From IMG/VR virus record IMGVR_UViG_2690316161_000007: a DNA stretch of 23,485 nucleotides; one strand, given 5' to 3'. Every line of letters starts with the position of its first letter. Within the stretch, counting starts at the first letter, position 1. The notes under the pieces are model-generated. The model searched no databases and had not been told where the DNA came from. It saw nothing but the letters and a program-made list of their open reading frames with translations. Positions 5,443 through 23,363 of the stretch are shown piece by piece. This DNA comes from a virus. Taxonomy: Duplodnaviria; Heunggongvirae; Uroviricota; Caudoviricetes. The position numbers and the translations under genes are program-made.

Positions 5443-5488
5443 ATGCCTGAAAAACAGCCCCACAGGGGCTGTCCGGAGAAACAGCATT

Positions 5489-5815: not shown

Positions 5816-6089
5816 TCTGTTTACGCGAATGTGTTGCCGGATGGACGGGGCGACCGTTCGGGTGATGGGCAAACAGGCGGAGATTAACGGCGTCGTGTAT
5901 GACGTGATGCCGGAGGAAGAGTCCGCGGAGATGGGGGCGCTTTCGGGCAGCCAGTTGTCACTGGTGGTGTTTTCAGCCCGGTACCGTCCGGCCCGTCATG
6001 ATGTTGTTGTGTTTGCGGGGCGCACACTGACGGTGACCCGTTATGACACGTACAACGGTAAACCCCGGATTTTTGTCGAACAGGAATGA
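5808..6089 (+). CDS. Putative head completion / head-tail connector protein (FII position)
   Basis: 93 aa ORF whose ATG (5808) overlaps the preceding stop (ATGTCTGA) and whose own stop overlaps the Z start region. Position equivalent to lambda FII. Confidence 0.6.
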   Translation: MSDLFTRMCCRMDGATVRVMGKQAEINGVVYDVMPEEESAEMGALSGSQLSLVVFSARYRPARHDVVVFAGRTLTVTRYDTYNGKPRIFVEQE

Positions 6090-6091
6090 GT

Positions 6092-6715
6092 ATGGCAATA
6101 AAAGGTCTGGCGCAGGCCATGAAAAATCTGGATGCAATTGACCGCCGTGCCGTTCCCCGGGCTGCCGCCACGACACTTAACCGTGTGGCGGAGTCCATCA
6201 TCGCGAAAACGGCCTCTTCGGTTGCCAGGGAGCTGGCGGTTCCGCGCCGTCTCATCCGTGAGCGTATCCGCCTGCAACGGGCTAGCGCAGACAGGATTTA
6301 TGCGAAGGTCATCATCAACACCGGTAATCTGCCCGCCATAAAACTGGGGACGGCCAGCGTGCGGCTTTCCCGCAGAAAGCGACGAAAGAAAGGCGAGCGT
6401 TCGGTCAAGAAAGGGGGCGGCAGTGTGCTGATTGTGGGGAAAAGACGGATCCCGGACGCCTTTATCACCCGGCTGGCTAACGGACGCTGGCATGTGATGC
6501 AGCGTATGCCGTGGGCACCATCGTCCACCGGTGCTGACAGCAAAGGGAGGCCGAAACGCTACCGTCTGCCGATTGAAGTGGTGAAAATTCCGACTGCCGG
6601 ACCGCTGGCAGAAACTTTTGAACGTGAACGGGACCGGATGTACCGGGAAAAATTACCGGCGCAGATGATGAAAGCCATGACGCATCAGTTACGCCTGGTG
6701 CTGAAAAGAAAATGA
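6092..6715 (+). CDS. Z: Tail completion protein Z
   Basis: Product begins MAIKGLAQAMKNL and contains RRKRRKKGERSVKKGGGSVLIVGKRRIP and NGRWHVMQR, matching lambda gpZ as recalled. ATG 6092 has AGGA 6 nt upstream; an in-frame ATG at 6086 is an alternative. Confidence 0.88.
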   Translation: MAIKGLAQAMKNLDAIDRRAVPRAAATTLNRVAESIIAKTASSVARELAVPRRLIRERIRLQRASADRIYAKVIINTGNLPAIKLGTASVRLSRRKRRKKGERSVKKGGGSVLIVGKRRIPDAFITRLANGRWHVMQRMPWAPSSTGADSKGRPKRYRLPIEVVKIPTAGPLAETFERERDRMYREKLPAQMMKAMTHQLRLVLKRK

Positions 6716-6727
6716 CAGGGAGGGTGT

Positions 6728-7126
6728 ATGAAACACCGTGAAATACGGACGGCAGTTCTGTCTGCCCTGAAAGACAATATTTCTGAGCGGGTGAGCTGGT
6801 TTGACGGCCGCCCGGTTTTTATTGATGAACAGGAACTGCCTGCTGTTGCTGTTTACCTGACTGATGCGTCTGCTGCTGACGAGTTCGTTGATGAGGGGAC
6901 CTGGGAGGCGACACTGCATATTGAAGTTTTTCTCAGGGCAAAAGAACCGGACTCGGCACTGGATATGTGGATGGAAGAGAAAATCCTTCCTGCGCTGGAG
7001 GCGGTTCCCGGCCTCAGTGCGTTACTGCTGAAGATGAATCTTCAGGGGTATGACTACCGCCGGGATGATGAGTTTATGATGTGGGGATCGGCAGATCTCC
7101 TGTGGAAAATTACCTACGAGATGTGA
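6728..7126 (+). CDS. U: Minor tail protein U (tail terminator)
   Basis: 132 aa product ([14 protein letters not shown] ... LHIEVFL ... GYDYRRDD ... ITYEM) closely matches lambda gpU as recalled; GGGAGGG RBS upstream. Confidence 0.9.
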
Positions 7127-7133
7127 GGACGAT

Positions 7134-7880
7134 ATGGCAATACCAAATCCTCTTGAGCCGGTGAAAGGTTCCGGCACCACACTATGGGTGTACACCGGCA
7201 AGGATGATGCTTATGCCAACCCGTTGTCAGATGATGACTGGCAGCGACTGGCTAAGGTGAAGGATCTGACGCCGGGCGAGATGACGGCAGAATCCTACGA
7301 TGATAACTACCTGGATGATGAAGACGCGGACTGGAGCGCGACCGGGCAGGGACAGAAATCTGCAGGTGATACCAGTTTTACACTGGCCTGGAAACCGGGA
7401 GAGGAAGGCCAGAAAGGGCTTATAGGCTGGTTTGAAAGCGGCGATGTCCGGGCCTATAAAATCCGTTTTCCGAATGGCACGGTGGATGTGTTTCGTGGCT
7501 GGGTCAGCAGTATCGGTAAGGCCGTGACGGCGAAAGAAGTGATCACCCGCACGGTGAAAGTCACTAACGTGGGTAAACCTTCTGTAGCGGAAGAACGCAG
7601 CAAAATTACGCCGGTCACTGCGATTAAGGTAACGCCGACAGGTACGGTTGAAAAAGGGAAAACAACCACCCTGACCGTTACTGTGGAACCGGAAAATGCA
7701 ACGGATAAGACATTCAGGGCGATTTCCGCCGATCCATCAAAAGCCACCATTAGCGTGAAAGATATGACGATTACTGTGACGGGGGTTAAGGATGGAAAAG
7801 TCAGCATCCCTGTGATTTCCGGTAATGGTCAGTTTGCTGCGGTGGCTGAAATTACCGTTAATAATGTGCCGGGTGGCTAA
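7134..7880 (+). CDS. V: Major tail protein V with C-terminal Ig-like domain
   Basis: 248 aa product ([12 protein letters not shown] ... [41 protein letters not shown]) is near-identical in long stretches to lambda gpV as recalled; C-terminal ~90 aa is Ig-like. Confidence 0.92.
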
Positions 7881-7898
7881 AGAGCTGAGAGATAAGCG

Positions 7899-8330
7899 AT
7901 GTTCCTGAAAACAGAACAATTTGAATATAACGGTGTATCCGTCACGCTTTCTGAGCTGTCTGCGCTGCAGCGTATTGAGCATCTTGCCCTCCTGAAACGG
8001 CGGGCAGAAGAGGCTGAAGCCAGCGGCAACCTGCAGGTGAGTGTGGAAGATCTTGTCAGAACCGGCGCGTTTCTGGTGGCGATGTCCCTGTGGCATAACC
8101 ATCCACAGAAAACGCAGTCACCGTCAATGAATGAGGCCGTGATGAAGATAGAGCAGGAAGTGCTCACCACCTGGCCTGCCGATGCCATTGCCCGGGCGGA
8201 AGACGTGGTGTTGTGCCTGTCCGGGATGATCGAAGCTGTTCGTCCGGATACTGATATTACTGAAGTGGCGAAAAATAACACGCTGACTGATGATGATTTT
8301 TCTGCGGGAAAGTCTTCGACGGTGAGCTGA
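7899..8330 (+). CDS. G: Tail assembly chaperone G
   Basis: 143 aa product (MFLKTEQFEYNGVSVTLSELSALQRIEHLAL ...) matches lambda gpG as recalled and ends just after a GGGAAAG slippery heptamer. Confidence 0.88.
   Translation: MFLKTEQFEYNGVSVTLSELSALQRIEHLALLKRRAEEAEASGNLQVSVEDLVRTGAFLVAMSLWHNHPQKTQSPSMNEAVMKIEQEVLTTWPADAIARAEDVVLCLSGMIEAVRPDTDITEVAKNNTLTDDDFSAGKSSTVS
8306..8312 (+). promoter_or_regulatory. Programmed -1 ribosomal frameshift slippery site (G GGA AAG) for G-T fusion
   Basis: Heptamer GGGAAAG sits in the G frame as G-GGA-AAG. The -1 frame is open from here into the T ORF (8357-8761, same frame as 8306), as in lambda G/GT. Confidence 0.8.
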
Positions 8331-8761
8331 ACTTTGCCCTCAGACTGGCGCGTGAGATGGGGAGACCCGACTGGCGCGCCATGCTTGCCGGGATGACATC
8401 CACCGAATATGCCGACTGGCACCGTTTTTACCGCACGCATTATTTTCAGGATACCCAGCTGGATATGCATTTTTCCGGGCTGACGTACGCTGTACTCAGC
8501 CTGTTTTTTTGCGATCCGGATATGCATCCCTCTGATTTCAGTCTGCTGGCACCCCGACGTGATGATGAGCAGACGGAGATGCCGGATGAGGACGATATGC
8601 TGATGCGGAAAGCGGCAGGTCTTTCTGGTGGTGTCCGCTTTGGGGCTGACGGGAAGGAAATCGTTATGGTCAGTGATGACATGCGGAGCAGTACAGAGGA
8701 TGAAGCCATGCTGATGATGGTGTCTGAGGGAATTCCAGGAGGTGTACGCTATGGCGGGTAA
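8306..8761 (+). CDS. T: T segment of the G-T tail assembly chaperone (made only as G-T fusion via -1 frameshift)
   Basis: -1 frame relative to G, open from the slippery site through 8761. Product (MGRPDWRAMLAGMTSTEYADW ...) is in the lambda T position. Confidence 0.8.
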   Translation, partial: GKVFDGELNFALRLAREMGRPDWRAMLAGMTSTEYADWHRFYRTHYFQDTQLDMHFSGLTYAVLSLFFCDPDMHPSDFSLLAPRRDDEQTEMPDEDDMLMRKAAGLSGGVRFGADGKEIVMVSDDMRSSTEDEAMLMMVSEGIPGGVRYGG

Positions 8762-11270
8762 TTTTGCCGATCTGACAGCTGTTCTTACACTGGATTCAAC
8801 CCGTTTTTCTGAAGAGGCTGCACGGGTAAAGAAAGAACTGGGTGAAGCCAGTGACCTTGCGGATTTGATGGCCGTGCGTGTCAGCCAGTCTTTTAAGAAA
8901 CAGGCCGCTGCTGTTGAGCAGGGGCTGAGCCGTCAGGCGCTGGCTGCACAAAAAGCCGGGATTTCCGTCGGGCAGTATAAAGCGGCCATGCGTACGCTAC
9001 CCATGCAGTTCACCGACGTGACCACGCAGCTTGCCGGTGGTCAGAATCCCTGGCTAATTCTGCTGCAACAGGGCGGGCAGATTAAGGACTCGTTCGGTGG
9101 GATGATCCCCATGTTCCGGGGACTGGCTGGGGCCGTCTCGCTGCCTGCTGTCGGAATTGGTGCGCTTGCTGCTGCCACGGGGGTGCTGGCGTATGCCTGG
9201 TACCGGGGCGACGCCACGCTTTCAGAATTTAATAAAACGCTGGTTCTTTCCGGTAATCAGTCCGGACTGACTGCCGATCGCATGCTGACGCTCTCCAGAG
9301 CCGGACAGGCCGCGGGGCTGACGTTTAACCAGGCGAGAGAGTCACTGGCAGCCATGGTGAATGCCGGTGTGCGTGGTGGTGAACAGTTTGATGCCATCAA
9401 CCAGAGTGTCGCGCGTTTTGCTTCTGCATCCGACGTGGAGGTGGACAAGGTTGCAGAGGCTTTCGGAAAACTGACCACTGACCCGACGTCGGGGCTGATT
9501 GCGATGGCGAAGCTGTTCCATAACGTGACGGCAGAGCAGATTGCGTATGTTGCACAGTTACAGCGTTCCGGTGATGAGGCCGGGGCATTGCAGGCGGCGA
9601 ACGATATTGCCACGAAAGGCTTTGATGAGCAGACCCGTCGCCTGAAAGAAAACATGGGGACGCTGGAGACCTGGGCGGATAAAACAGGGAAGGCGTTCAA
9701 ATCGATGTGGGATGCCATCCTGGATATCGGTCGTCCGGAATCCTCAGCGGATATGCTCGCCAGTGCGCAGAAGGCATTTGATGAGGCGGATAAAAAATGG
9801 CAGTGGTACCAGAGCCGGAGCCAGCGCCGCGGTAAAACCTCCTCTTTCCGGGCCAACCTTCAGGGCGCATGGGATGACCGGGAAAATGCCCGTCTGGGTC
9901 TGGCAGCGGCAACGCTGCAGTCGGATATGGAAAAAGCCGGTGAACTGGCGGCAAGGGACAGGGCTGAGCGTGAGTCGTCACAGCTGAAGTATACCGGAGA
10001 GGCGCAGAAGGCGTATGAGCGCCTGCTGACGCCACTGGAGAAATATACCGCCCGGCAGGAAGAGCTGAATAGGGCCCTGAAAGACGGAAAAATCCTGCAG
10101 GCGGATTACAACACGCTGATGGCGTCGGCAAAAAAGGATTATGAATCGACGCAGAAAAAGCCGTCAGGTGTGAAGGTGTCTGCCGGTGAGCGCCAGGAAG
10201 ACCGGGCGCATGCAGCCATGCTGTCGCTTGAAACTGAGCTCAGGACGCTGGAGAAGCACAGCGGTGCGAATGAAAAAATCAGCCAGCAGCGCCGGGATTT
10301 ATGGAAAGCGGAAAATCAGTATGTGGTCCTGAAAGAGGCCGCCACGAAACGGCAGTTATCTGAGCAGGAAAAATCCCTGCTGGCTCATGAGAAAGAGACG
10401 CTGGAGTACAAACGCCAGCTGGCTGAGCTGGGCGACAAGGTTGAACACCAGAAACGGCTGAATGAGCTGGCACAGCAGGCGGCGCGGTTTGAACAGCAGC
10501 AGAGTGCGAAGCAGGCGGCAATCAGCGCAAAAGCCCGCGGACTCACCGACCGTCAGGCGCAGCGGGAGTCGGAAGAGCAGCGCCTTCGTGAGGTGTACGG
10601 TGATAATCCGGATGCGCTGGCGAAGGCCACATCTGCACTGAAGAACACCTGGTCTGCGGAGGAGCAGCTTCGTGGAAGCTGGATGGCCGGTCTGAAGTCC
10701 GGCTGGGGCGAGTGGGCAGAAAGTGCGACGGACAGTTTTTCGCAGGTTAAAAGCGTGGCCACGCAGACCTTTGACGGTATTGCACAGAATATGGCAGCGA
10801 TGCTGACCGGCAGTGAGCAGAACTGGCGCAGCTTCACCCGTTCCGTGCTGTCCATGATGACAGAAATTCTGCTTAAGCAGGCAATGGTGGGGATTGTCGG
10901 GAGTATCGGAACCGGAGGATTTACGGGAACCGGCGGCAAATATGAGCCAGCGGGGATTGTTCACCGTGGTGAGTTTGTCTTCACGAAGGAGGCAACCAGC
11001 CGGATTGGCGTGGGGAATCTTTACCGGCTTATGCGCGGCTATGCCACCGGCGGTTATGTCGGTACACCGGGCAGTCTGGCGGACAGCCGGTCGCAGGCGT
11101 CCGGGAAGTTTGAGCAGAATAACCATGTGGTGATTAACAACGACGGCACGAACGGGCAGATTGGACCACAGGCGCTGAAGGCTGTGTATGACATGGCCCG
11201 CAAGGGTGCCCGTGATGAAATTCAGGCACAGATGCGTGATGGTGGCTTGTTCTCCGGAGGTGGACGATGA
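8751..11270 (+). CDS. H: Tail tape measure protein H, copy 1 (variant N-terminus, lacks Gly/Ala-rich segment)
   Basis: ~840 aa product with long coiled-coil-like Gln/Ala/Glu-rich regions and a lambda-like C-terminal domain (GKYEPAGIVHRGEFVFTKEATSRIGVGNLYRLMRGYATGGYVG). ATG 8751 is 8 nt after AGGAGG (8737-8742); stop overlaps M start. Confidence 0.9.
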   Translation: MAGNFADLTAVLTLDSTRFSEEAARVKKELGEASDLADLMAVRVSQSFKKQAAAVEQGLSRQALAAQKAGISVGQYKAAMRTLPMQFTDVTTQLAGGQNPWLILLQQGGQIKDSFGGMIPMFRGLAGAVSLPAVGIGALAAATGVLAYAWYRGDATLSEFNKTLVLSGNQSGLTADRMLTLSRAGQAAGLTFNQARESLAAMVNAGVRGGEQFDAINQSVARFASASDVEVDKVAEAFGKLTTDPTSGLIAMAKLFHNVTAEQIAYVAQLQRSGDEAGALQAANDIATKGFDEQTRRLKENMGTLETWADKTGKAFKSMWDAILDIGRPESSADMLASAQKAFDEADKKWQWYQSRSQRRGKTSSFRANLQGAWDDRENARLGLAAATLQSDMEKAGELAARDRAERESSQLKYTGEAQKAYERLLTPLEKYTARQEELNRALKDGKILQADYNTLMASAKKDYESTQKKPSGVKVSAGERQEDRAHAAMLSLETELRTLEKHSGANEKISQQRRDLWKAENQYVVLKEAATKRQLSEQEKSLLAHEKETLEYKRQLAELGDKVEHQKRLNELAQQAARFEQQQSAKQAAISAKARGLTDRQAQRESEEQRLREVYGDNPDALAKATSALKNTWSAEEQLRGSWMAGLKSGWGEWAESATDSFSQVKSVATQTFDGIAQNMAAMLTGSEQNWRSFTRSVLSMMTEILLKQAMVGIVGSIGTGGFTGTGGKYEPAGIVHRGEFVFTKEATSRIGVGNLYRLMRGYATGGYVGTPGSLADSRSQASGKFEQNNHVVINNDGTNGQIGPQALKAVYDMARKGARDEIQAQMRDGGLFSGGGR

Positions 11271-11596
11271 AAACCTTCCGCTGGAAAGTGAAACCCGGGA
11301 TGGATGTGACATCGGCTCCTTCCGTCAGGGAGGTGCGCTTTGGTGATGGCTATTCCCAGCGTGCGCCTGCCGGGCTGAATGCTGACCTGAAAACGTACAG
11401 CGTGACGCTTTCTGTCTCCCGCGAGGAGGCCAGGGCGCTGGAGTCGTTTCTGGCTGAGCACGGGGGCTGGAAAGCCTTTCTGTGGACGCCGCCTTATGGC
11501 TGGCGGCAGATCAGGGTGACCTGCGCAAAATGGACATCGCGGGTCAGTATGTTACGTGTTGAGTTCAGCGCAGAGTTTGAACAGGTGGTGAACTGA
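11267..11596 (+). CDS. M: Minor tail protein M, copy 1
   Basis: 109 aa product (MKTFRWKVKPGMDVTSAPSVREVRFGDGYSQRAPAGLNADLKTYSVTLSV ...) is lambda gpM-like; ATGA overlap with H stop and with the next ORF's start. Confidence 0.88.
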   Translation: MKTFRWKVKPGMDVTSAPSVREVRFGDGYSQRAPAGLNADLKTYSVTLSVSREEARALESFLAEHGGWKAFLWTPPYGWRQIRVTCAKWTSRVSMLRVEFSAEFEQVVN

Positions 11597-12222
11597 TGCA
11601 GGATATCCGGCAGGAAACACTGAATGAATGCACCCGTGCGGAGCAGTCGGCCAGCGTGGTGCTCTGGGAAATCGACCTGACAGAGGTCGGTGGAGAACGT
11701 TATTTTTTCTGTAATGAGCAGAACGAAAAAGGTGAGCCGGTCACCTGGCAGGGGCGACAGTATCAGCCGTATCCCATTCAGGGGAGCGGTTTTGAACTGA
11801 ATGGCAAAGGCACCAGTACGCGCCCCACGCTGACGGTTTCTAACCTGTACGGTATGGTCACCGGGATGGCGGAAGATATGCAGAGTCTGGTCGGCGGAAC
11901 GGTGGTCCGGCGTAAGGTTTACGCCCGTTTTCTGGATGCGGTGAACTTCGTCAACGGAAACAGTTACGCCGATCCGGAGCAGGAGGTGATCAGCCGCTGG
12001 CGCATCGAGCAGTGCAGCGAACTGAGCGCAGTGATGCAGATTGAGCAGGAAGTCCTGACCACCTGGCCTGCTGATGCCATTGCCCGGGCGGAAGATGTGG
12101 TGTTGCGTCTGTCCGGGATGAGCGGGCCTGTTCATGTGGATACGGATATTACCGAAGTGGCGAAAAATAACGCGCTGACTGATGATGATTTTTCTGCGGG
12201 AAAGTCTTCGACGGCGAGCTGA
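11596..12222 (+). CDS. Chimeric ORF: minor tail protein L residues 1-146 fused in frame to the C-terminal 62 aa of G (duplication junction product)
   Basis: First 146 aa are almost identical to the first 146 aa of the full-length L at 15548-16246. After SELSAV the sequence switches to MQIEQEVLTTWPADAIARAEDVV ... FSAGKSSTAS, which matches G residues 82-143 (8142-8330). Confidence 0.75.
   Translation: MQDIRQETLNECTRAEQSASVVLWEIDLTEVGGERYFFCNEQNEKGEPVTWQGRQYQPYPIQGSGFELNGKGTSTRPTLTVSNLYGMVTGMAEDMQSLVGGTVVRRKVYARFLDAVNFVNGNSYADPEQEVISRWRIEQCSELSAVMQIEQEVLTTWPADAIARAEDVVLRLSGMSGPVHVDTDITEVAKNNALTDDDFSAGKSSTAS
12198..12204 (+). promoter_or_regulatory. Second copy of the GGGAAAG -1 frameshift slippery site (in the chimeric L::G ORF)
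   Basis: Same heptamer in the same frame relationship; the -1 frame is open from here into the second T ORF (12249-12662). Confidence 0.7.
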
Positions 12223-12662
12223 ATTTTGCCCTCAGACTGGCGCGTGAGATGGGGAGGCCTGACTGGCGCGCCATGCTTGCCGGGATGACATCCACCGAAT
12301 ATGCCGACTGGCGACATTTTTACCGCATGCATTATTTTCACGATACCCAGCTGGATATGCATTTTTCCGGGCTGACGTACGCTGTACTCAGCCTGTTTTT
12401 TTGCGATCCGGATATGCATCCCTCTGATTTCAGTCTGCTTGTCCCCCGGCATGAGGAAGAGCAGGTGGAGAGGCCGGATGAGGACAAAATGCTGATGCAG
12501 AAAGCGGCAGGACTTGCCGGAGGCGTCCGGTTCGGTGGGGACGGAGGGCGCGATATTTTATCGTCTGCGGATGTGGCTGATGTCATGGTGGATGATGCCG
12601 CATTAATGATGGCTTCAGCGGGGATTTCCGGAGGTGTGAGATATGTCCCAGCCGGTTGGTGA
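12198..12662 (+). CDS. T: T segment, copy 2 (reachable by -1 frameshift from the chimeric L::G ORF)
   Basis: Paralogous to 8306-8761, nearly identical in the N-terminal ~60 aa and divergent at the C-terminus; stop overlaps start of H copy 2. Confidence 0.75.
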   Translation, partial: GKVFDGELNFALRLAREMGRPDWRAMLAGMTSTEYADWRHFYRMHYFHDTQLDMHFSGLTYAVLSLFFCDPDMHPSDFSLLVPRHEEEQVERPDEDKMLMQKAAGLAGGVRFGGDGGRDILSSADVADVMVDDAALMMASAGISGGVRYVPAGW

Positions 12663-15222
12663 TCTTGTTATTGACCTTAGTCTGGATGCGGTCCGTTTCG
12701 ATGAGCAGATGAGCCGGGTAAGGCGTCATTTTTCAGGTCTGGATACCGACGCCAGAAAAACCGCCAGTGCTGTTGAACAGGGCCTGAGCCGCCAGGCGCT
12801 GGCTGCACAAAAAGCCGGGATTTCCGTCGGGCAGTATAAAGCGGCCATGCGAACCCTGCCCGCACAGTTTACGGATATCGCCACGCAGCTTGCCGGTGGT
12901 CAGAATCCCTGGCTGATCCTGCTGCAACAGGGCGGTCAGGTGAAGGACTCCTTCGGCGGGATGATCCCCATGTTCAGGGGGCTTGCCGGTGCGATCACCC
13001 TGCCGATGGTCGGGGTCACCTCGCTGGCGGTGGCGACAGGTGCGCTGGCGTACGCCTGGTACCAGGGGGATTCCACGCTTTCAGCGTTTAATAAAACCCT
13101 GGTTCTTTCCGGTAATCAGTCCGGACTGACTGCCGATCGCATGCTGACGCTCTCCAGAGCCGGACAGGCCGCAGGGCTGACGTTTAACCAGGCGAGTGAG
13201 TCACTGGCAGCCCTGGTGAATGCCGGTGTGCGTGGTGGTGAACAGTTTGATGCCATCAACCAGAGTGTCGCGCGTTTTGCTTCTGCATCCGGTGTGGAGG
13301 TGGACAAGGTTGCAGAGGCTTTCGGAAAACTGACCACCGACCCGACGTCGGGGCTGATGGCGATGGCGCGCCAGTTCCGTAACGTGACGGCAGAGCAGAT
13401 TGCGTATGTTGCGCAGCTGCAGCGTTCCGGTGATGAGGCCGGGGCCTTACAGGCGGCGAACGATATCGCCACGAAAGGCTTTGATGAGCAGACCCGTCGC
13501 CTGAAAGAAAACATGGGGACACTGGAGACCTGGGCGGATAAAACCGGGAAGGCATTCAAATCGATGTGGGATGCCATTCTGGATATCGGTCGTCCTGAGT
13601 CCTCAGCGGATATGCTCGCCAGTGCGCAGAAGGCATTTGATGAGGCGGATAAAAAATGGCAGTGGTACCAGAGCCGGAGCCAGCGCCGCGGTAAAACCTC
13701 TTCTTTCCGGGCCAACCTTCAGGGCGCATGGAATGACCGGGAAAATGCCCGGCTGGGGCTGGCAGCGGCCACGCTGCAGTCGGATATGGAAAAAGCCGGT
13801 GAACTGGCCGCCAGGGACCGGGCCGAACGGGACGCATCACAGCTGAAGTATACCGGAGAGGCGCAGAAGGGGTATGAGCGTCTGCTGACGTCGCTGGAGA
13901 AATATACCGCCCGTCAGGAAGAACTGAATAAGGCCCTGAAAGACGGGAAAATCCTGCAGGCGGATTACAACACGCTGATGGCGGCGGCGAAAAAGGATTA
14001 TGAATCGACGCTGAAAAAGCCGAAGTCGTCAGGAGTCAAAGTGTCAGCCGGTGAGCGTCAGGAAGACCAGGCGCATGCTGCCCTGCTGGCGCTTGAAACC
14101 GAGCTCCGGACGCTGGAAAAACACAGCGGTGCGAATGAGAAAATCAGCCAGCAGCGTCGCGATTTATGGAAAGCGGAAAATCAGTATGCGGTCCGGAAAG
14201 AGGCAGCCACGAAACGGCAGTTATCTGAGCAGGAAAAATCCCTGCTGACCCATGAGAAAGAGACGCTGGAGTACAAACGCCAGCTGGCTGAGCTGGGAGA
14301 CAAAGTTGAACACCAGAAACGGCTGAATGAGCTGGCACAGCAGGCTGCGCGGTTTGAGCAGCAGCAGGGCGCGAAGCAGGCGGCAATCAGTGCCCAGGCG
14401 CGGGGCCTCACCGACCGTCAGGCGCAGCGGGAGTCGGAAGAGCAGCACCTTCGTGACGTGTACGGTGATAATCCGGATGCGCTGGCGAAGGCCACATCTG
14501 CACTGAAGAACACCTGGTCTGCGGAGGAGCAGCTTCGTGGAAGCTGGATGGCCGGGATGAAGTCCGGCTGGGGTGAGTGGGCGGAAAGTGCGACGGACAG
14601 TTTTTCGCAGGTAAAAAGCGTGGCCACGCAGACCTTTGACGGTATTGCACAGAATATGGCAGCGATGCTGACCGGCAGTGAGCAGAACTGGCGCAGCTTC
14701 ACCCGTTCCGTGCTGTCCATGATGACAGAAATTCTGCTTAAGCAGGCAATGGTGGGGATTGTCGGGAGTATCGGTAGCGCCATTGGCGGGGCTGTTGGTG
14801 GCGGCGCATCCGCATCAGGCGGTACAGCCATTCAGGCAGCTGCGGCGAAATTCCATTTTGCAACCGGAGGATTTACGGGAACCGGCGGCAAATATGAGCC
14901 AGCGGGAATTGTTCACCGCGGTGAATTCGTCTTCACGAAGGAGGCAACCAGACGGATTGGCGTGGGGAATCTCTACCGGCTGATGCGCGGCTATGCCACC
15001 GGCGGTTATGTCGGTACACCGGGCAGCATGGCGGACAGCCGGTCGCAGGCGTCCGGGACGTTTGAGCAGAATAACCATGTGGTGATTAACAACGACGGCA
15101 CGAACGGTCAGATAGGGCCACAGGCACTGAAGGCTGTTTATGACGTAGCCCGTAAGGCGGCAATGGATGTTGTGACCGGGCAGATGCGCGATGGTGGTCT
15201 GTTCTCCGGAGGTGGACGATGA
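12643..15222 (+). CDS. H: Tail tape measure protein H, copy 2 (lambda-like full version)
   Basis: 859 aa product whose N-terminus (MSQPVGDLVIDLSLDAVRFDEQMSRVRRHFSG) and Gly/Ala-rich segment (SAIGGAVGGGASASGGTAIQAAAAKFHFATGG) match lambda gpH as recalled. ATG 12643 is 8 nt after GGAGG. Confidence 0.9.
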   Translation: MSQPVGDLVIDLSLDAVRFDEQMSRVRRHFSGLDTDARKTASAVEQGLSRQALAAQKAGISVGQYKAAMRTLPAQFTDIATQLAGGQNPWLILLQQGGQVKDSFGGMIPMFRGLAGAITLPMVGVTSLAVATGALAYAWYQGDSTLSAFNKTLVLSGNQSGLTADRMLTLSRAGQAAGLTFNQASESLAALVNAGVRGGEQFDAINQSVARFASASGVEVDKVAEAFGKLTTDPTSGLMAMARQFRNVTAEQIAYVAQLQRSGDEAGALQAANDIATKGFDEQTRRLKENMGTLETWADKTGKAFKSMWDAILDIGRPESSADMLASAQKAFDEADKKWQWYQSRSQRRGKTSSFRANLQGAWNDRENARLGLAAATLQSDMEKAGELAARDRAERDASQLKYTGEAQKGYERLLTSLEKYTARQEELNKALKDGKILQADYNTLMAAAKKDYESTLKKPKSSGVKVSAGERQEDQAHAALLALETELRTLEKHSGANEKISQQRRDLWKAENQYAVRKEAATKRQLSEQEKSLLTHEKETLEYKRQLAELGDKVEHQKRLNELAQQAARFEQQQGAKQAAISAQARGLTDRQAQRESEEQHLRDVYGDNPDALAKATSALKNTWSAEEQLRGSWMAGMKSGWGEWAESATDSFSQVKSVATQTFDGIAQNMAAMLTGSEQNWRSFTRSVLSMMTEILLKQAMVGIVGSIGSAIGGAVGGGASASGGTAIQAAAAKFHFATGGFTGTGGKYEPAGIVHRGEFVFTKEATRRIGVGNLYRLMRGYATGGYVGTPGSMADSRSQASGTFEQNNHVVINNDGTNGQIGPQALKAVYDVARKAAMDVVTGQMRDGGLFSGGGR

Positions 15223-15548
15223 AAACCTTCCGCTGGAAAGTGAAACCCGGTATGGATGTGGCTTCTGCCCCTTCCGTAAGAAAGGTGCGCTTTGGTGATG
15301 GCTATTCCCAGCGAGCGCCTGCCGGGCTGAACACTGACCTGAAAACGTACAGCGTGACGCTTTCTGTTCCCCGTTGGGAGGCCGCGGCGCTGGAGTCGTT
15401 TCTGGCTGAGCACGGGGGCTGGAAGGCCTTTCTGTGGACGCCGCCTTATGGCTACCGGCAGATAAAGGTGACCTGCGCAAAATGGTCGTCGCGGGTCAGT
15501 ATGCTGCGTGTTGAGTTCAGCGCAGAGTTTGAACAGGTGGTGAACTGA
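15219..15548 (+). CDS. M: Minor tail protein M, copy 2
   Basis: 109 aa paralog of 11267-11596 with a few substitutions; ATGA overlaps with flanking genes. Confidence 0.88.
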   Translation: MKTFRWKVKPGMDVASAPSVRKVRFGDGYSQRAPAGLNTDLKTYSVTLSVPRWEAAALESFLAEHGGWKAFLWTPPYGYRQIKVTCAKWSSRVSMLRVEFSAEFEQVVN

Positions 15549-16246
15549 TGCAGGATATCCGACAGGAAACACTGAATGAATGCACCCGTGCGGAGCAGTC
15601 TGCCAGCGTGGTGCTCTGGGAAATCGACCTGACAGAGGTCGGTGGAGAACGTTATTTTTTCTGTAATGAGCAGAACGAAAAAGGTGAGCCGGTCACCTGG
15701 CAGGGGCGACAGTATCAGCCGTATCCCATTCAGGGGAGTGGTTTTGAACTGAATGGCAAAGGCACCAGTACGCGCCCCACGCTGACGGTTTCTAACCTGT
15801 ACGGTATGGTCACCGGCATGGCGGAAGATATGCAGAGTCTGGTCGGCGGAACGGTGGTCAGGCGTAAGGTTTACGCCCGTTTTCTGGATGCGGTGAATTT
15901 CGTCAACGGAAACAGCGACGCCGATCCGGAGCAGGAGGTGATCAGCCGCTGGCGCATCGAGCAGTGCAGCGAACTGAGCGCGGTCAGTGCCTCCTTTGTA
16001 CTGTCCACGCCGACGGAAACGGACGGCGCTGTTTTTCCGGGACGTATCATGCTGGCCAACACCTGCACCTGGACCTATCGCGGCGATGAGTGCGGTTATC
16101 ACGGTCCGGCGGTCGCGGATGAATATGACCAGCCAACGTCCGATATCACGAAGGATAAATGCAGCAAATGCCTGAGCGGTTGTAAGTTTCGCAATAACGT
16201 CGGCAACTTTGGCGGCTTCCTTTCCATTAACAAACTTTCGCAGTAA
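15548..16246 (+). CDS. L: Minor tail protein L, full length
   Basis: 232 aa product; C-terminal region contains the Cys-rich segment (CTWTYRGDECGYHG ... KCSKCLSGCKF) expected for lambda gpL-type proteins. Confidence 0.9.
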   Translation: MQDIRQETLNECTRAEQSASVVLWEIDLTEVGGERYFFCNEQNEKGEPVTWQGRQYQPYPIQGSGFELNGKGTSTRPTLTVSNLYGMVTGMAEDMQSLVGGTVVRRKVYARFLDAVNFVNGNSDADPEQEVISRWRIEQCSELSAVSASFVLSTPTETDGAVFPGRIMLANTCTWTYRGDECGYHGPAVADEYDQPTSDITKDKCSKCLSGCKFRNNVGNFGGFLSINKLSQ

Positions 16247-16251
16247 ATCCC

Positions 16252-16995
16252 ATGACAGAGACAGAATCAGCGATTCTGGCGCACGCCCGGCGATGTGCGC
16301 CAGCGGAGTCGTGCGGCTTCGTGGTGAGAACGCCGGAGGGGGAAAGCTATTTTCCCGGCGTGAATATTTCCGGTGAGCCGGAGGATTATTTCCGGATGGC
16401 TCCGGAGGACTGGCTGCAGGCAGAGATGCAGGGTGAGATTGTGGCGCTGGTCCACAGCCACCCCGGTGGTCTGCCCTGGCTGAGTGAGGCTGACCGGCGG
16501 CTACAGGTGCAGAGCGATTTGCCGTGGTGGCTGGTCTGCCGGGGGGCGATTCACAAGTTCCGCTGTGTGCCGCATCTCACCGGGCGGCGCTTTGAGTACG
16601 GGGTGACGGACTGTTACACACTGTTCCGGGATGCTTACCATCTGGCGGGGATTGAGATGCCGGACTTTCATCGTGAGGATGACTGGTGGCGTCACGGTCA
16701 GAATCTCTATCTGGATAATCTGGAGGCAACGGGGCTGTATCAGGTGCCGTTGTCAGCGGCGCAGCCGGGCGATGTGCTGCTGTGCTGCTTTGGTTCATCG
16801 GTGCCGAATCATGCCGCTATTTACTGTGGTGATGGCGAGCTGCTGCACCATATTCCTGAACAACTGAGCAAACGAGAGAGGTATACCGACAAATGGCAGC
16901 GACGCACACACTCCCTCTGGCGTCACCGGGCATGGCACGCATCTGCCTTTACGGGGATTTGCAACGATTTGGCCGCCGCATCGACCTTCGTGTGA
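16252..16995 (+). CDS. K: Tail tip assembly protein K (JAB/MPN metalloprotease plus NlpC/P60-like domain)
   Basis: 247 aa product with a JAMM-like motif (ALVHSHPGGLPWLSEAD) and near-identity to lambda gpK as recalled. Confidence 0.9.
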   Translation: MTETESAILAHARRCAPAESCGFVVRTPEGESYFPGVNISGEPEDYFRMAPEDWLQAEMQGEIVALVHSHPGGLPWLSEADRRLQVQSDLPWWLVCRGAIHKFRCVPHLTGRRFEYGVTDCYTLFRDAYHLAGIEMPDFHREDDWWRHGQNLYLDNLEATGLYQVPLSAAQPGDVLLCCFGSSVPNHAAIYCGDGELLHHIPEQLSKRERYTDKWQRRTHSLWRHRAWHASAFTGICNDLAAASTFV

Positions 16996-17534
16996 AAACG
17001 GGGGCTGAAGCCATCCGGGCACTGGCCACACAGCTCCCGGCGTTTCGTCAGAAACTGAGCGATGGCTGGTATCAGGTACGGATTGCCGGGCGGGATGCAG
17101 GAGAAACCGAATTATCATCCCGTCTTAATGAGCCGCTGGCAAATGGTGCCGTGATCCACATCGTGCCGCGTCTTGCGGGAGCAAAAAGTGGCGGTGTGTT
17201 TCAGGCGGTGCTGGGTGCGGCGTTGATTGCTACGGCAATCTGGATGCCGGGGATCAGTATCGCTTTCAGTGACATTCTCTTTTCAATGGGTGCGGCGATG
17301 ACGCTTGGTGGTGTGGCGCAGATGCTGGCACCGAAAGCCAGAACTCCCCGTACACAGACAACGGATAACGGCAAACAGAACACCTATTTCTCCTCACTGG
17401 ATAACATGGTTGCCCAGGGCAATGTCCTGCCTGTTCTGTACGGTGAAATGCGCGTGGGGTCACGTGTGGCATCTCAGGAGATCAGCACGGCAGATGAAGG
17501 GGATGGTGGTCAGGTTGTGGTAATTGGGCGGTAA
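16893..17534 (+). CDS. I: Tail tip assembly protein I
   Basis: Product begins MAATHTLPLASPGMARICLYGDLQRFGRRIDLRV and ends QVVVIGR, matching lambda gpI as recalled; 5' end overlaps K as in lambda. Confidence 0.88.
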   Translation: MAATHTLPLASPGMARICLYGDLQRFGRRIDLRVKTGAEAIRALATQLPAFRQKLSDGWYQVRIAGRDAGETELSSRLNEPLANGAVIHIVPRLAGAKSGGVFQAVLGAALIATAIWMPGISIAFSDILFSMGAAMTLGGVAQMLAPKARTPRTQTTDNGKQNTYFSSLDNMVAQGNVLPVLYGEMRVGSRVASQEISTADEGDGGQVVVIGR

Positions 17535-17540
17535 TATTAT

Positions 17541-17580
17541 TTTACTCATGTTCTAACTGATTTAATATTTATATCGAACA
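17541..17580 (+). promoter_or_regulatory. Putative sigma70-like promoter region for the lipoprotein moron
   Basis: AT-rich intergenic DNA with a -35-like TTTACT (17541-17546) and a -10-like TAATAT (17563-17568) 16 nt apart. Sequence-pattern guess only. Confidence 0.3.
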
Positions 17581-17607
17581 CTGATAATTATTCTATTGGT
17601 TAGCTAT

Positions 17608-17946
17608 ATGAACAAAACGATTTTATTCTGCACGATTATTGCCTTAACAGGATGTAAATCTTTGGATTACGTAAAATCCGGAAAACCTGTAATGGAAGGT
17701 AATTCATTAAAAAATATTGATGAATTGTCAGGCTGCATATCCAGACAATGGGCTGGTAATGGAACACCTATAACATCCCTTCCTATTGAGAATGGGGTAA
17801 GCCTTTTAGTTCCACAGGCTATGGGGGGATATGATGTTGTGCTTGATATCAAAAAAGCAGGAAATGGCAGTAGTTTTACTCTTTATGAACGTGTACCAGC
17901 ATTAACGCCAAAAATTTTTGCTGATAGTGTTAATGCATGTAAATAA
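17608..17946 (+). CDS. Small secreted lipoprotein encoded by a moron between I and J
   Basis: Product starts MNKTILFCTIIALTGCKS: hydrophobic signal peptide plus lipobox L-T-G-C, with Lys at +2 of the mature protein. The gene lies in a strongly AT-rich island unlike the flanking tail genes and is followed by an intrinsic terminator. ORF track opens at TTG 17596; ATG 17608 is preferred. Confidence 0.7.
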   Translation: MNKTILFCTIIALTGCKSLDYVKSGKPVMEGNSLKNIDELSGCISRQWAGNGTPITSLPIENGVSLLVPQAMGGYDVVLDIKKAGNGSSFTLYERVPALTPKIFADSVNACK

Positions 17947-17970
17947 TAGTTAATCCTGTCGTAACTCATG

Positions 17971-17998
17971 AGCCGCCTTTTGGGCGGCTTTGTTGTTT
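17971..17998 (+). terminator. Rho-independent terminator after the lipoprotein moron
   Basis: AGCCGCC-TTTTG-GGCGGCT hairpin followed by TTGTTGTTT. Confidence 0.7.
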
Positions 17999-18012
17999 AT
18001 GGAGTGTGAGGA

Positions 18013-21000
18013 ATGGGTAAAGGAAGCAGTAAGGGGCATACCCCGCGCGAAGCGAGGGACAACCTGAAGTCCACGCAGCTGCTGAGTGTGATCGATGCCA
18101 TCAGCGAAGGGCCGGTTGAAGGTCCGGTGGACGGATTAAAAAGCGTGCTGCTGAACAGTACGCCGGTGCTGGACAGTGAGGGGAATACCAATATATCCGG
18201 TGTCACGGTGGTGTTCCGGGCAGGTGAGCAGGAGCAGACACCGCCGGAGGGATTTGAATCCTCCGGCTCCGAGACGGTGCTGGGTACGGAAGTGAAATAT
18301 GACACGCCGATCACCCGGACCATCACGTCGGCAAACATCGACCGTCTGCGCTTTACCTTCGGTGTGCAGGCACTGGTGGAAACCACCTCAAAGGGGGACC
18401 GGAATCCGTCGGAAGTCCGCCTGCTGGTTCAGATACAGCGTAACGGTGGCTGGGTGACGGAAAAAGACATCACCATTAAGGGCAAAACCACCTCGCAGTA
18501 TCTGGCCTCGGTGGTGGTGGATAACCTGCCGCCGCGCCCGTTTAATATCCGGATGCGCAGGATGACGCCTGACAGCACCACAGACCAGCTGCAGAACAAA
18601 ACGCTCTGGTCGTCATACACCGAAATCATCGATGTGAAACAGGGCTACCCGAACACGGCACTGGTCGGCGTGCAGGTGGACTCGGAGCAGTTCGGCAGCC
18701 AGCAGGTGAGCCGTAATTATCATCTGCGCGGGCGTATTCTGCAGGTGCCGTCGAATTATAACCCGCAGACGCGGCAATACAGCGGTATCTGGGACGGAAC
18801 GTTTAAACCGGCATACAGCAACAACATGGCCTGGTGTCTGTGGGATATGCTGACCCATCCACGCTACGGCATGGGGAAACGTCTTGGTGCGGCGGATGTG
18901 GACAAATGGGCGCTGTATGTCATCGGCCAGTACTGCGACCAGTCAGTGCCGGATGGCTTTGGCGGCACGGAGCCGCGCATTACCTGTAATGCGTACCTGA
19001 CCACACAGCGCAAGGCGTGGGATGTGCTCAGTGATTTCTGCTCGGCGATGCGCTGTATGCCGGTATGGAACGGGCAGACGCTGACGTTCGTGCAGGACCG
19101 ACAGTCAGATAAGGTGTGGACCTATAACCGCAGTAATGTGGTGATGCCGGATGATGGTGCGCCGTTCCGCTACAGCTTCAGCGCCCTGAAGGACCGCCAT
19201 AATGCCGTTGAGGTGAACTGGATTGACCCGAACAACGGCTGGGAGACGGCGACAGAGCTTGTGGAGGATACGCAGGCCATTGCCCGTTACGGTCGTCACG
19301 TCACGAAGATGGATGCCTTTGGCTGTACCAGCCGGGGGCAGGTGCACCGCGCCGGGCTGTGGCTGATTAAAACGGAACTGCTGGAAACGCAGACCGTGGA
19401 CTTCAGCGTGGGTGCAGAAGGGCTTCGCCATGTACCGGGCGATGTCATTGAAATCTGTGATGATGACTATGCCGGTATCAGCACCGGCGGGCGCGTGCTG
19501 GCGGTGAACAGCCAGACCCGGACGCTGACGCTCGACCGTGAAATCACGCTGCCATCTTCCGGCACCACGCTGATAAGCCTGGTTGACGGAAGTGGCAATC
19601 CGGTCAGCGTGGAGGTTCAGTCCGTCACTGATGGCGTGAAGGTAAAAGTGAGCCGTGTTCCTGACGGCGTTGCCGAGTACAGCGTGTGGGGGCTGAAGCT
19701 GCCGATGCTGCGCCAGCGCCTGTTCCGCTGCGTGAGTATCCGTGAGAACGACGACGGCACGTATGCCATCACCGCCGTGCAGCATGTACCGGAAAAAGAG
19801 GCCATCGTGGATAACGGGGCGCACTTTGACGGCGACCAGAGCGGCACGGTGAATGGTGTCACGCCGCCAGCGGTGCAGCACCTGACCGCAGAAGTCACCG
19901 CAGACAGTGGGGAATATCAGGTGCTGGCGCGCTGGGACACGCCGAAGGTGGTGAAGGGCGTGAGCTTCCTGCTTCGCCTGACCGTGGCAGCGGACGATGG
20001 CAGTGAGCGGCTGGTCAGCACGGCCAGGACGACGGAAACTACATACCGCTTCACGCAACTGGCGCTGGGAAATTACAGGCTGACAGTCCGGGCGGTAAAT
20101 GCGTGGGGACAGCAGGGCGATCCGGCATCGGTATCGTTCCGGATTGCCGCACCGGCAGCACCGTCGCGGATTGAGCTGACGCCGGGCTATTTTCAGATAA
20201 CCGCCACGCCGCATTTTGCGGTTTATGATCCGACGGTACAGTTTGAGTTCTGGTTCTCGGAAAAACGGATTGCTGATATCAGGCAGGTTGAAACCAGCGC
20301 GCGTTATCTTGGTACGGCGCTGTACTGGATAGCCGCCAGTATCAATATCAAACCGGGCCATGATTATTATTTTTACGTTCGCAGTGTGAACACCGTTGGC
20401 AAATCGGCATTCGTGGAGGCTGTCGGTCGGGCGAGCGATGATGCGGAAGGTTACCTGGATTTTTTCAAAGGAGAAATCGGGAAAACACATCTGGCCCAGG
20501 AGCTGTGGACGCAGATTGATAACGGTCAGCTTGCGCCGGACCTGGCTGAAATCAGGACGTCCATTACGAATGTCAGCAATGAAATCACGCAGACCGTCAA
20601 TAAAAAACTGGAAGACCAGAGTGCGGCAATCCAGCAGATACAGAAAGTTCAGGTTGATACAAATAATAACCTGAACAGCATGTGGGCCGTGAAACTGCAG
20701 CAGATGCAGGACGGACGCCTTTATATTGCGGGTATCGGAGCCGGTATTGAGAATACGCCAGCAGGTATGCAGAGTCAGGTGCTTCTGGCTGCTGACCGGA
20801 TTGCGATGATTAATCCTGCGAATGGCAACACAAAGCCGATGTTTGTTGGTCAGGGCGATCAGATATTCATGAACGAAGTGTTCCTGAAATACCTGACGGC
20901 TCCCACCATTACCAGCGGCGGTAATCCTCCGGCATTTTCCCTGACACCGGACGGGCGGCTGACGGCGAAAAATGCCGATATCAGCGGTAACGTGAATGCG

Positions 21001-21492
21001 AACTCCGGGACGCTCAACAACGTCACGATTAACGAAAACTGTCGGGTTCTGGGAAAACTGTCCGCCAACCAGATTGAAGGCGATCTCGTTAAAACAGTGG
21101 GCAAAGCTTTCCCCCGGGACTCCCGTGCACCGGAGCGGTGGCCATCAGGGACCATTACCGTCAGGGTTTATGACGATCAGCCGTTTGACCGGCAAATTGT
21201 TATTCCGGCGGTGGCATTCAGTGGCGCTAAGCATGAGAGAGAGCATACTGATATTTACTCCTCATGCCGTCTGATAGTGCGGAAAAACGGTGCTGAAATT
21301 TATAACCGTACCGCGCTGGATAATACGCTGATTTACAGTGGTGTTATTGATATGCCTGCCGGTCACGGTCACATGACGCTGGAGTTTTCGGTGTCAGCAT
21401 GGCTGGTAAATAACTGGTATCCCACAGCAAGTATCAGCGATTTGCTGGTTGTGGTGATGAAGAAAGCCACCGCAGGCATCAGTATCAGCTGA
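18013..21492 (+). CDS. J: Tail tip / host specificity protein J
   Basis: 1159 aa product beginning [34 protein letters not shown], near-identical to lambda gpJ as recalled over roughly the first 800 aa; the C-terminal ~340 aa diverge. GGAG RBS upstream. Confidence 0.95.
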
Positions 21493-21510
21493 ATTTTATA
21501 ACCCATATAC

Positions 21511-21536
21511 GGGCGCCAGAAATGGCGCCTTTTTTA
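21511..21536 (+). terminator. Intrinsic terminator between J and lom
   Basis: GGGCGCC-AGAAAT-GGCGCC hairpin followed by TTTTTT. Confidence 0.65.
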
Positions 21537-21559
21537 TTGCAGAAAAGCGAGAGGTAATT

Positions 21560-22159
21560 ATGCGTAAAGTTTGTGCAGCCATTTTGTCCGCAGCCATCTG
21601 TCTGTCCGTATCCGGTGCGCCTGCATGGGCGTCTGAACATCAGTCCACACTGAGCGCGGGGTATCTTCATGCCCGTACGAACGCTCCCGGCAGCGATAAT
21701 CTGAACGGGATTAACGTGAAATACCGTTATGAGTTTACGGACGCGCTGGGGCTGATTACGTCCTTCAGTTATGCCAATGCTGAGGATGAGCAAAAAACGC
21801 ACTACAGCGATACCCGCTGGCATGAAGATTCCGTGCGTAACCGCTGGTTCAGCGTGATGGCGGGGCCGTCTGTGCGCGTGAATGAATGGTTCAGCGCGTA
21901 TGCGATGGTGGGTGTGGCTTACAGCCGTGTGTCGACTTTCTCCGGGGATTATCTCCGCGTAACTGACAACAAGGGGAAAACGCACGATGTGCTGACCGGA
22001 AGTGATGACGGTCGCCACAGCAACACGTCTCTGGCGTGGGGGGCTGGCGTGCAGTTTAACCCGACCGAATCCGTGACCATTGACCTTGCTTATGAAGGTT
22101 CCGGTAGTGGCGACTGGCGAACGGATGCATTTATTGTTGGTATCGGATACCGTTTCTGA
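21560..22159 (+). CDS. lom: Outer membrane protein Lom (Ail/Lom family beta-barrel), lysogenic-conversion moron
   Basis: 199 aa product with signal peptide (MRKVCAAILSAAICLSVSGAPAWA) and C-terminal GIGYRF; near-identical to lambda Lom as recalled. Flanked by terminators on both sides. Confidence 0.92.
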   Translation: MRKVCAAILSAAICLSVSGAPAWASEHQSTLSAGYLHARTNAPGSDNLNGINVKYRYEFTDALGLITSFSYANAEDEQKTHYSDTRWHEDSVRNRWFSVMAGPSVRVNEWFSAYAMVGVAYSRVSTFSGDYLRVTDNKGKTHDVLTGSDDGRHSNTSLAWGAGVQFNPTESVTIDLAYEGSGSGDWRTDAFIVGIGYRF

Positions 22160-22263
22160 CAACAGACGCCGATTTATCTTCTGTAAATATTGTTATGATA
22201 CGCAGGTTCATCCACCTTATGGGGTGAACTGCGTTTGAGGAAACGTAAAGTTACACTGTCCTG

Positions 22264-22297
22264 AAGCCCGTGGCGTCACTGCTGCGGGCTTTTTTTA
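22264..22297 (+). terminator. Intrinsic terminator after lom
   Basis: AGCCCG ... CGGGCT hairpin followed by TTTTTTT (22290-22296). Confidence 0.6.
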
Positions 22298-22310
22298 TTG
22301 GTGGAAAAGT

Positions 22311-23363
22311 ATGACAGTAAAAATTTCTGGCGTGCTTAAAGATGGCACAGGAAAACCAGTACAGAACTGCACCATTGTGCTGAAGGCCAGACGAACCAGC
22401 AGCACGGTGGTGGTGAACACGGTGGCCTCTGAAAATCCGGATGAAGCCGGACGTTACAGCATGGATGTTGAGCATGGTCAGTACAGCGTCACCCTGCTGG
22501 TTGAAGGTTTTCCGCCTTCACATGCCGGGACCATCACCGTGTATGAAGATTCCCGACCCGGTACGCTGAATGATTTTCTCGGTGCCATGACGGAGGATGA
22601 TGCCCGTCCTGAGGCACTGCGCCGTTTTGAACTGATGGTGGAAGAGGTGGTGCGTAACGCAGAGGAGGCGAAGAAGAATGCCGGAGAGGCGGAGACGTCA
22701 GCGAGGAATGCCGGCATATCAGCCAGTCAGGCAGAAGAGAGCGCGGCAAATGCTGACACTTCAGCAGGGGAGGCATCGGAGTCAGCCCGGCAGGCGGCAG
22801 AAAGTGCAGCCTCAGCAAAGCAGTCAGAGGAGGCGTCCTCGTCCTCGGCTTCTGCGGCCGCTCAAAAAGCCAGTGAGTCATCACAAAGTGCAGCAGATGC
22901 TGAATTGTCAAGAAAGACGGCAGAAAGTGCAGCCGGTAATGCAGCCAGGGATGCAACGACCGCAGCAGAAAAAGCCCGGGAGTCAGCAGAAAGCGCACAG
23001 TCAGCGGAACAAAGCAGGATAGCGGCGGAAGACGCCGTAAACCGAATCCCCACCGTGGTGGGACCTCCCGGGCCAAAGGGGGAACAGGGGCCCGCTGGCC
23101 CTCAGGGGCCGAAGGGCGACCCGGGGGAGACGCAAATACGGTTCCGTCTGGGGCCGGGAAACATTATTGAGACAAACAGCCATGGCTGGTTCCCGGATAC
23201 AGATGGCGCACTCATCACCGGACTGACCTTTCTTGACCCCAAAGATACCACACGGGTTCAGGGTTTTTTTCGGCATTTGCAGGTCAGGTTTGGTGACGGG
23301 CCGTGGCAGGATGTTAAGGGGCTGGATGAAGTGGGCAGTGATACAGGCAGAACAGGAGAATGA
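22311..23363 (+). CDS. stf: Side tail fiber protein (Stf-like N-terminus, Ser/Ala-rich region, collagen-like repeats, distinct C-terminal domain)
   Basis: N-terminus MTVKISGVLKDGTGKPVQNCTIVLKARR ... SMDVEHGQYSVTLLVEGFPPSHAGTITVYEDS matches the lambda Stf (orf-401) N-terminus as recalled. Long Ser/Ala/Glu-rich tract, then GPPGPKGEQGPAGPQGPKGDPGE. Confidence 0.85.
   Translation: MTVKISGVLKDGTGKPVQNCTIVLKARRTSSTVVVNTVASENPDEAGRYSMDVEHGQYSVTLLVEGFPPSHAGTITVYEDSRPGTLNDFLGAMTEDDARPEALRRFELMVEEVVRNAEEAKKNAGEAETSARNAGISASQAEESAANADTSAGEASESARQAAESAASAKQSEEASSSSASAAAQKASESSQSAADAELSRKTAESAAGNAARDATTAAEKARESAESAQSAEQSRIAAEDAVNRIPTVVGPPGPKGEQGPAGPQGPKGDPGETQIRFRLGPGNIIETNSHGWFPDTDGALITGLTFLDPKDTTRVQGFFRHLQVRFGDGPWQDVKGLDEVGSDTGRTGE
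23061..23129 (+). repeat. Collagen-like Gly-X-Y triplet repeat (7 triplets) inside the tail fiber gene
   Basis: Translation GPPGPKGEQGPAGPQGPKGDPGE in the stf frame. Confidence 0.85.

Follow-up and report, generated by a model that had tools for sequence, protein, structure and literature searches.

Probable OmpC specificity of the mosaic tail tip protein J encoded by a lambda-type phage sequence

Gene J of the tailed-phage sequence IMGVR_UViG_2690316161_000007 encodes a central tail fibre protein which is lambda-like over most of its length and unlike lambda at its C terminus, and the question it raises is which outer-membrane protein this phage recognizes. The window, i.e. the whole stretch of DNA that was analyzed, comprises 23,485 nucleotides (nt). 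A first-pass annotation had noted that roughly the first 800 residues of J were nearly identical to lambda J while the last ~340 differed substantially, and had proposed a receptor other than LamB. The protein is a natural three-module mosaic within the lambda TipJ family, and, judging from the near-identity of its C-terminal domain to one that has been tested experimentally, it probably binds OmpC in an allele-selective manner (EDL933-like alleles being accepted and the K-12 allele not) rather than LamB.

18013..21492, + strand: gene J, tail tip attachment / central tail fibre protein, 1159 amino acids (aa), intact (open reading frame (ORF) list and translation)

Upon translation the J reading frame was free of internal stops across its 1159 codons. 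The product is a full-length member of NCBIfam family NF049904 (lambda_TipJ), scoring 2379.6 bits against a cut-off of 1950 with residues 1-1159 covered. Based on Pfam, six domains were identified above the cut-offs, in the order expected for lambda TipJ:

J residues 86-207: FNIII-A_GpJ
J residues 330-498: Phage-tail_3
J residues 610-714: Ig_J
J residues 716-818: Ig_J_second
J residues 872-1000: Phage_Tail_Tip
J residues 1029-1159: Ig_GpJ_C, the receptor-binding domain (128 bits)

The arrangement is that of a TipJ protein, with a hub, two fibronectin type III (FNIII)/immunoglobulin (Ig) domains, a helical shaft, a straight fibre and a C-terminal Ig-like receptor-binding domain. The PDB matches were lambda gpJ and A8 gpJ, the lambda structure (8iyk) matching residues 1-835 and 866-1158. 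The RefSeq protein WP_000515779.1 from Escherichia coli O111:H2 12A differs from window J by a single amino acid (Q364P).

Lambda J (NC_001416, 15505-18903) was used as the reference for protein alignment. Identity was 97.7% over residues 1-820 and 48.7% over residues 821-1159, which bears out both halves of the first-pass description. The break point falls where the second Ig/FNIII domain ends and the alpha-helical shaft begins, the domains being named according to the lambda cryo-electron microscopy work (PMC11101478). The divergence had been placed at 20460, and the motif quoted for it begins at residue 816 (nt 20458), within a codon of that position. Beyond the break, the alignment revealed a 28-residue insertion relative to lambda (residues ~836-863, nt ~20518-20601), followed by residues 864-960 with 45-72% identity, residues 961-1000 with 95% aa identity and residues 1001-1159 with about 45%. 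The C-terminal 150 residues are not conserved with lambda J (41.3% identity), and the last 130 are 42% identical, so that close similarity to lambda J residues ~1000-1132 was not found.

Window J was further compared in 90-nt blocks of nucleotide identity with the J genes of lambda, phage 21, lambda h434, VT1-Sakai and PhiR55_1, from which the following parts were delineated:

18013..20472, + strand: lambda-type body, residues 1-820, comprising the hub domains and two Ig/FNIII domains (97.7% aa identity to lambda J)
20473..21057, + strand: module 2, residues ~821-1015, alpha-helical shaft and central straight fibre of the phage-21/enterohaemorrhagic E. coli (EHEC) type (90-nt blocks, Pfam)
20878..21012, + strand: conserved island, residues ~956-1000 (nucleotide identity blocks)
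21058..21489, + strand: module 3, residues ~1016-1159, Ig-like receptor-binding domain of the 1A2 / VT1-Sakai type (Pfam Ig_GpJ_C, identities)

From residue 1 to ~715 the nucleotide identities were 91-98% with lambda and h434, 88-98% with phage 21 and just 51-93% with VT1-Sakai; from residue ~716 to the end VT1-Sakai J is 88-100% identical (94-100% from residue ~776). Over module 2 the values were 23-87% for lambda, 83-95% for phage 21 and 94-100% for VT1-Sakai. Phage 21, which remains 83-95% identical up to residue ~1015, falls to 44-65% from residue ~1016 (reaching 83% only in the last 24 nt), whereas VT1-Sakai and PhiR55_1 keep 95-100%. This module boundary agrees with megablast, in which phage 21, mEp460 derivatives and many lambda recombinants matched J nt 1-3100 and then ended, while PhiR55_1, 640R1 and PhiR46_1 matched along the entire length. 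The divergent ~340 residues are, as a result, two things: a shaft/fibre module held in common with the LamB-using phage 21 (~95% nucleotide identity) and a separate receptor-binding module of ~145 residues. The first-pass annotation had treated the whole of the ~340 residues as the receptor determinant; the receptor-binding part does differ from lambda, but its extent was overstated, only the last ~130-145 residues forming the receptor-binding domain. The conserved island showed 82-98% nucleotide identity with lambda, phage 21, h434 and VT1-Sakai, i.e. with all J types compared, and on the strength of these identities it is likely to be a natural recombination joint between the fibre and receptor-binding modules. 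The same site (lambda residue 964) was picked by Brodel et al. for building gpJ chimeras (PMC11338833). J accordingly consists of three or more modules that can be exchanged, and it has a conserved joint.

The evidence on the receptor comes from one of these constructs. 1A2 gpJ is one of two chimeras in which natural E. coli gpJ C-termini were fused to lambda gpJ (Brodel et al., Nature 2024, PMC11338833), and it is used in EB003, a therapeutic against Shiga toxin-producing E. coli. The published, recoded 1A2 DNA was aligned to window J by frameshift-tolerant protein-to-DNA alignment. Its fusion point at lambda residue 964 corresponds to window residue ~992, and from there to residue 1159 all readable codons were identical save for F1069L, R1076K and S1157T; the two proteins have the same Ig-like receptor-binding domain. 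A search of the Brodel et al. supplement for 15-22-mers of window DNA found none, because the 1A2 DNA is recoded. The tip was identified on a lamB deletion recipient. In a lamB ompC double mutant supplied with OmpC from a plasmid, it was the OmpC allele that determined whether 1A2 delivered DNA: the allele of O157 strain EDL933 and most of the 23 tested permitted delivery, that of MG1655 (K-12) did not (PMC11338833). Into wild-type MG1655, in which LamB is present, delivery was about 5% at a multiplicity of infection (MOI) of 50 (PMC11338833). A follow-up preprint aims the same gpJ at O157 strains via OmpC (10.1101/2025.02.28.640725). OmpC dependence and LamB independence have thus been demonstrated in the literature for the 1A2 chimera, and the prophage's own J, with a near-identical domain, would be expected to behave in the same way. 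The first-pass proposal of a receptor other than LamB is supported by these published experiments on an essentially identical domain, not by divergence as such.

Divergence of the tip is indeed a poor guide. Phage 21 and lambda show just 46% identity in their receptor-binding domains, and LamB is nevertheless the native receptor of both (PMC11336670), so that a divergent tip sequence by itself is insufficient to predict a receptor switch. Conversely, OmpC serves as receptor for three distinct domain types (434/phi330, A8 and 1A2) and is also among the receptors of Gifsy-1 J, so that it recurs across lambda-like J proteins. In the lambda-type J family a receptor can therefore be assigned only where a tested domain is nearly identical, as is the case here. 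Over the last 130 residues, window J is 98% identical to PhiR55_1, 62% to phage 21, 42% to lambda and 40% to h434, and over the last 135 residues 59% to A8 gpJ (PDB 9wca). When the last 150 residues are taken, VT1-Sakai (98.7%), the PPompW prophages and a series of Stx2a phages reach 98.7-99.3% identity. Two other possible guides to the tip were examined and set aside: phi330, an OmpC-using EHEC siphophage, has a WGPS6-like, 434-type tip which is 39% identical and uninformative, and a 2026 receptor-prediction preprint covers Drexlerviridae GpJ and not lambda-type tips. A search for receptor data on PhiR55_1, 640R1 and PhiR46_1 found none, the paper using the ECOR phages giving ManYZ/SNIPE phenotypes only.

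Several points weigh against assigning OmpC to window J. The experiments concern the 1A2 chimera and none of them this phage itself. The 1A2 sequence was taken from machine-extracted PDF text with homopolymer errors, 11 of its codons being unreadable and a further four (1050-1051, 1086-1087) garbled; F1069L and R1076K could themselves be run-length errors of the extracted text. With up to three residues differing from 1A2, the range of OmpC alleles could differ as well, because a single J mutation suffices to add OmpC use in phage 21 (PMC11336670). Furthermore, 1A2 carries the lambda shaft and most of the lambda fibre, whereas window J has a shaft and fibre of the phage-21 type. Finally, the prophage may be defective, given its rearranged tail module, and its J never used.

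The kinship with phage 21 also allows for the variant tip being a different solution for the same receptor, LamB. The phage 21 and lambda domains, both natively LamB-binding, are no more alike (46%) than window J is like phage 21 (62%), with which it has the shaft and fibre module in common. This reading appears highly improbable, since the host used to select the near-identical 1A2 domain lacked lamB, and 1A2 delivers poorly to LamB+ MG1655 (5%, MOI 50) but efficiently when EDL933 OmpC is supplied. It is also conceivable that J uses several outer-membrane proteins, or another one (OmpF, OmpX, BtuB etc.), and that OmpC is just one of them. Gifsy-1 J binds OmpC, OmpX and BtuB, evolved J variants of lambda and of phage 21 have two or three porins as receptors, and the 1A2 work covered LamB and OmpC only. 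1A2 delivery in the lamB ompC double mutant tracks the OmpC allele, which argues for OmpC being necessary for DNA delivery, and we consider such a broader or different specificity improbable.

A third explanation concerns function rather than specificity, namely that J is an unused remnant of a defective prophage and that its receptor specificity has no current role in this genome. The partial tandem duplication G'-T-H-M-L' upstream, whose junction was found in 0 complete E. coli genomes, would fit such a history, as would the insertion sequence (IS) elements which riddle the closest relative, the O111:H2 12A prophage, and the frameshift in VT1-Sakai J itself. The J ORF, however, is intact over 1159 codons and one residue away from a RefSeq protein, and inducible phages, PhiR55_1 for example, carry J genes that are the same or nearly so. 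Defective prophages, moreover, donate J modules by recombination, and lambda derivatives such as 2G7b have this tip. On balance, an unused remnant is possible but somewhat unlikely.

If window J does bind OmpC, the lambda gpJ-LamB structures (PMC11101478) provide a frame for how the signal might be transmitted, and the following steps are drawn by analogy with them. Residues 1-820, of the lambda/21/434 type, fit the lambda-like M-L-K-I tip proteins encoded upstream, and residues ~821-1015 form the longer helical shaft and beta-prism fibre as in phage 21 and the EHEC prophages. Four loops at the bottom of the trimeric Ig-like domain would reach into the OmpC porin trimer at its extracellular mouth. 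On binding, the domain would splay, the beta-prism fibre would twist and the helical shaft would flip and partly refold; the FNIII strings would then dissociate, the hub would open and the DNA would be ejected. The longer shaft, with its 28 extra residues as in phage 21 and the EHEC prophages, presumably works in the same way. On smooth hosts the O antigen can be expected to have a shielding effect, which would make the side tail fibre necessary.

Among known systems, the closest differ from window J in different modules. 1A2 is an engineered, recoded fusion on the shaft/fibre of lambda, whereas window J is a natural allele with a shaft 28 residues longer. PhiR55_1 (PV340571), vB_EcoS-640R1 and PhiR46_1 have the same mosaic over the entire length of J, that of PhiR55_1 showing 96.4% nucleotide and 98.4% aa identity. 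VT1-Sakai (Sp15), the Stx2a phages and the EHEC PPompW prophages have a receptor-binding domain of the same type, the N-terminal 715 residues of VT1-Sakai J being only 51-93% identical at the nucleotide level since the window has the lambda-type body. In the annotation of VT1-Sakai J (AP000400.1, 2500-5972; Stx1 prophage Sp15), a frameshift has split the gene into two truncated ORFs that overlap. Phage 21 J is ~95% identical in nucleotides through body, shaft and fibre up to J nt ~3050-3100; its receptor-binding domain is 62% identical and natively binds LamB, with OmpC and OmpF use gained by mutation. Lambda J, a LamB binder (PDB 8iyk, 8xcj), belongs to the same family and has the same domain order, the same body and likewise a C-terminal Ig-like domain, but its shaft is 28 residues shorter and its receptor-binding domain 42% identical. 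A8 gpJ (PDB 9wca/9wcb), a broad OmpC binder, and the 434-type J, which uses OmpC, represent alternative Ig_GpJ_C domains on lambda-type J, 59% and 40% identical to the window domain, respectively; K-12 OmpC is accepted by A8 but not by 1A2. In E. coli 40EC (NZ_CP070920.1, 4754-8152) the tip of a natural prophage J shares 99% identity with that of the engineered A8 gpJ, which points to this prophage as the kind of natural source from which A8 came.

To gauge how widespread the tip is, 5426 complete E. coli genomes were searched with the 433-nt receptor-binding region (21060-21492), and a hit had to span 80% or more of the query. The region was present in 3350 of these (about 62%), with identity of at least 95% in 2518 records and a median of two copies per genome having it. 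Among phage records with a J tip, 56 of 243 carry the window type at 90% identity or more. The window tip is the commonest J tip type in E. coli prophages. Window J is, in other words, an already known and very common allele, the receptor of whose tip has been determined experimentally (as 1A2) and whose tip is in use in engineered delivery vectors. In practical terms, the primary receptor of the prophage can be annotated as OmpC (non-K-12 alleles), at the level of confidence given above.

A gene for a small lipoprotein lies between I and J:

17608..17946, + strand: lipoprotein gene, 112 aa, lipobox LTG|C, 36% G+C
17970-17990: terminator-like hairpin after the lipoprotein gene (consensus scan)

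With its lipobox, its 36% G+C and the terminator-like hairpin behind it, this is a typical horizontally acquired accessory gene (moron). The product matched phrog_914 only, a group of unknown function; searches with Pfam, NCBIfam and PADLOC gave no hit, and 50,697 phage records searched by tblastn contained no match. The first-pass annotation had suggested that this moron might act on the receptor, for which the distribution lends no support. The tip type occurs in 3350 of the 5426 complete E. coli genomes and the gene in 337, so that the majority of J genes with this tip are without it; PhiR55_1 has the same J and no gene between I and J, and VT1-Sakai has the same tip and no gene annotated there. 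In six E. coli prophages with the lipoprotein gene, including that of 40EC, the tip was 1A2-like in five (92-98%) and A8-like in one (40EC, 99%), which says little because both of these OmpC-binding tip types are also the dominant types. The lipoprotein family comprises 20 clusters, all from Enterobacteriaceae wherever the source is named. A Klebsiella homologue (52% identical) is located between K and I, upstream of J proteins of 3100-3367 residues, and an Enterobacter homologue (51% identical) between T and H; the J beside the latter ends just past the fibre domain, with no Ig_GpJ_C and no similarity to the window tip. Given these differing positions beside unrelated J tips, the gene inserts anywhere in lambdoid tail clusters, and a tie between the lipoprotein and the J tip type was rejected on distribution.

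The lipoprotein signal and the neighbouring gene for a receptor-binding protein are features shared with the receptor-masking exclusion lipoproteins (T5 Llp, phi80/N15 Cor). Neither homology to exclusion lipoproteins nor co-variation with the tip type was found by Pfam, NCBIfam, PADLOC and distribution, the Llp and Cor sequences not being directly compared. A new superinfection-exclusion factor, acting from the periplasmic side on OmpC or on a common lambdoid DNA-entry step, appears decidedly improbable; if it were one, it would shield lysogens from phages with OmpC-type J tips.

The position of J is as expected from the ORF layout, the annotations of lambda and of the 12A prophage, and Pfam, i.e. 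downstream of H-M-L-K-I and upstream of lom/stf. The features following it are:

21511..21540, + strand: terminator-like hairpin and T-run after J (consensus scan only)
21560-22159: Ail/Lom gene (Pfam hit for Lom)
22311-23363: side-tail-fibre gene (Pfam hit for Stf)

Window positions 1-10909 and 16383-23116 are 99.9% identical to the IS-riddled prophage of E. coli O111:H2 12A, which adjoins tRNA-Ser and hya. The intervening part (10910-16383) is heterologous to that prophage, with 90-96% identity where aligned. Between 8100 and 16400 the window contains a partial tandem duplication of the tail module, in the order G (3' part)-T-H-M-L (5' part) followed by G (3' part)-T-H-M-L, with the junction at ~12029. 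Two intact tape-measure ORFs result, at 8742-11270 (842 aa) and 12643-15222 (859 aa), and the two copies of the duplicated module are only 82-94% identical. The L-G junction was found in none of the 5426 complete E. coli genomes. Either two prophages recombined in a rare event to produce the duplication, or the assembly is chimeric. The side-tail-fibre gene, for its part, encodes 350 aa compared to 437 aa in the 12A prophage, and around 23097-23116 it is without a 261-nt in-frame stretch of the collagen-like repeat region relative to 12A.

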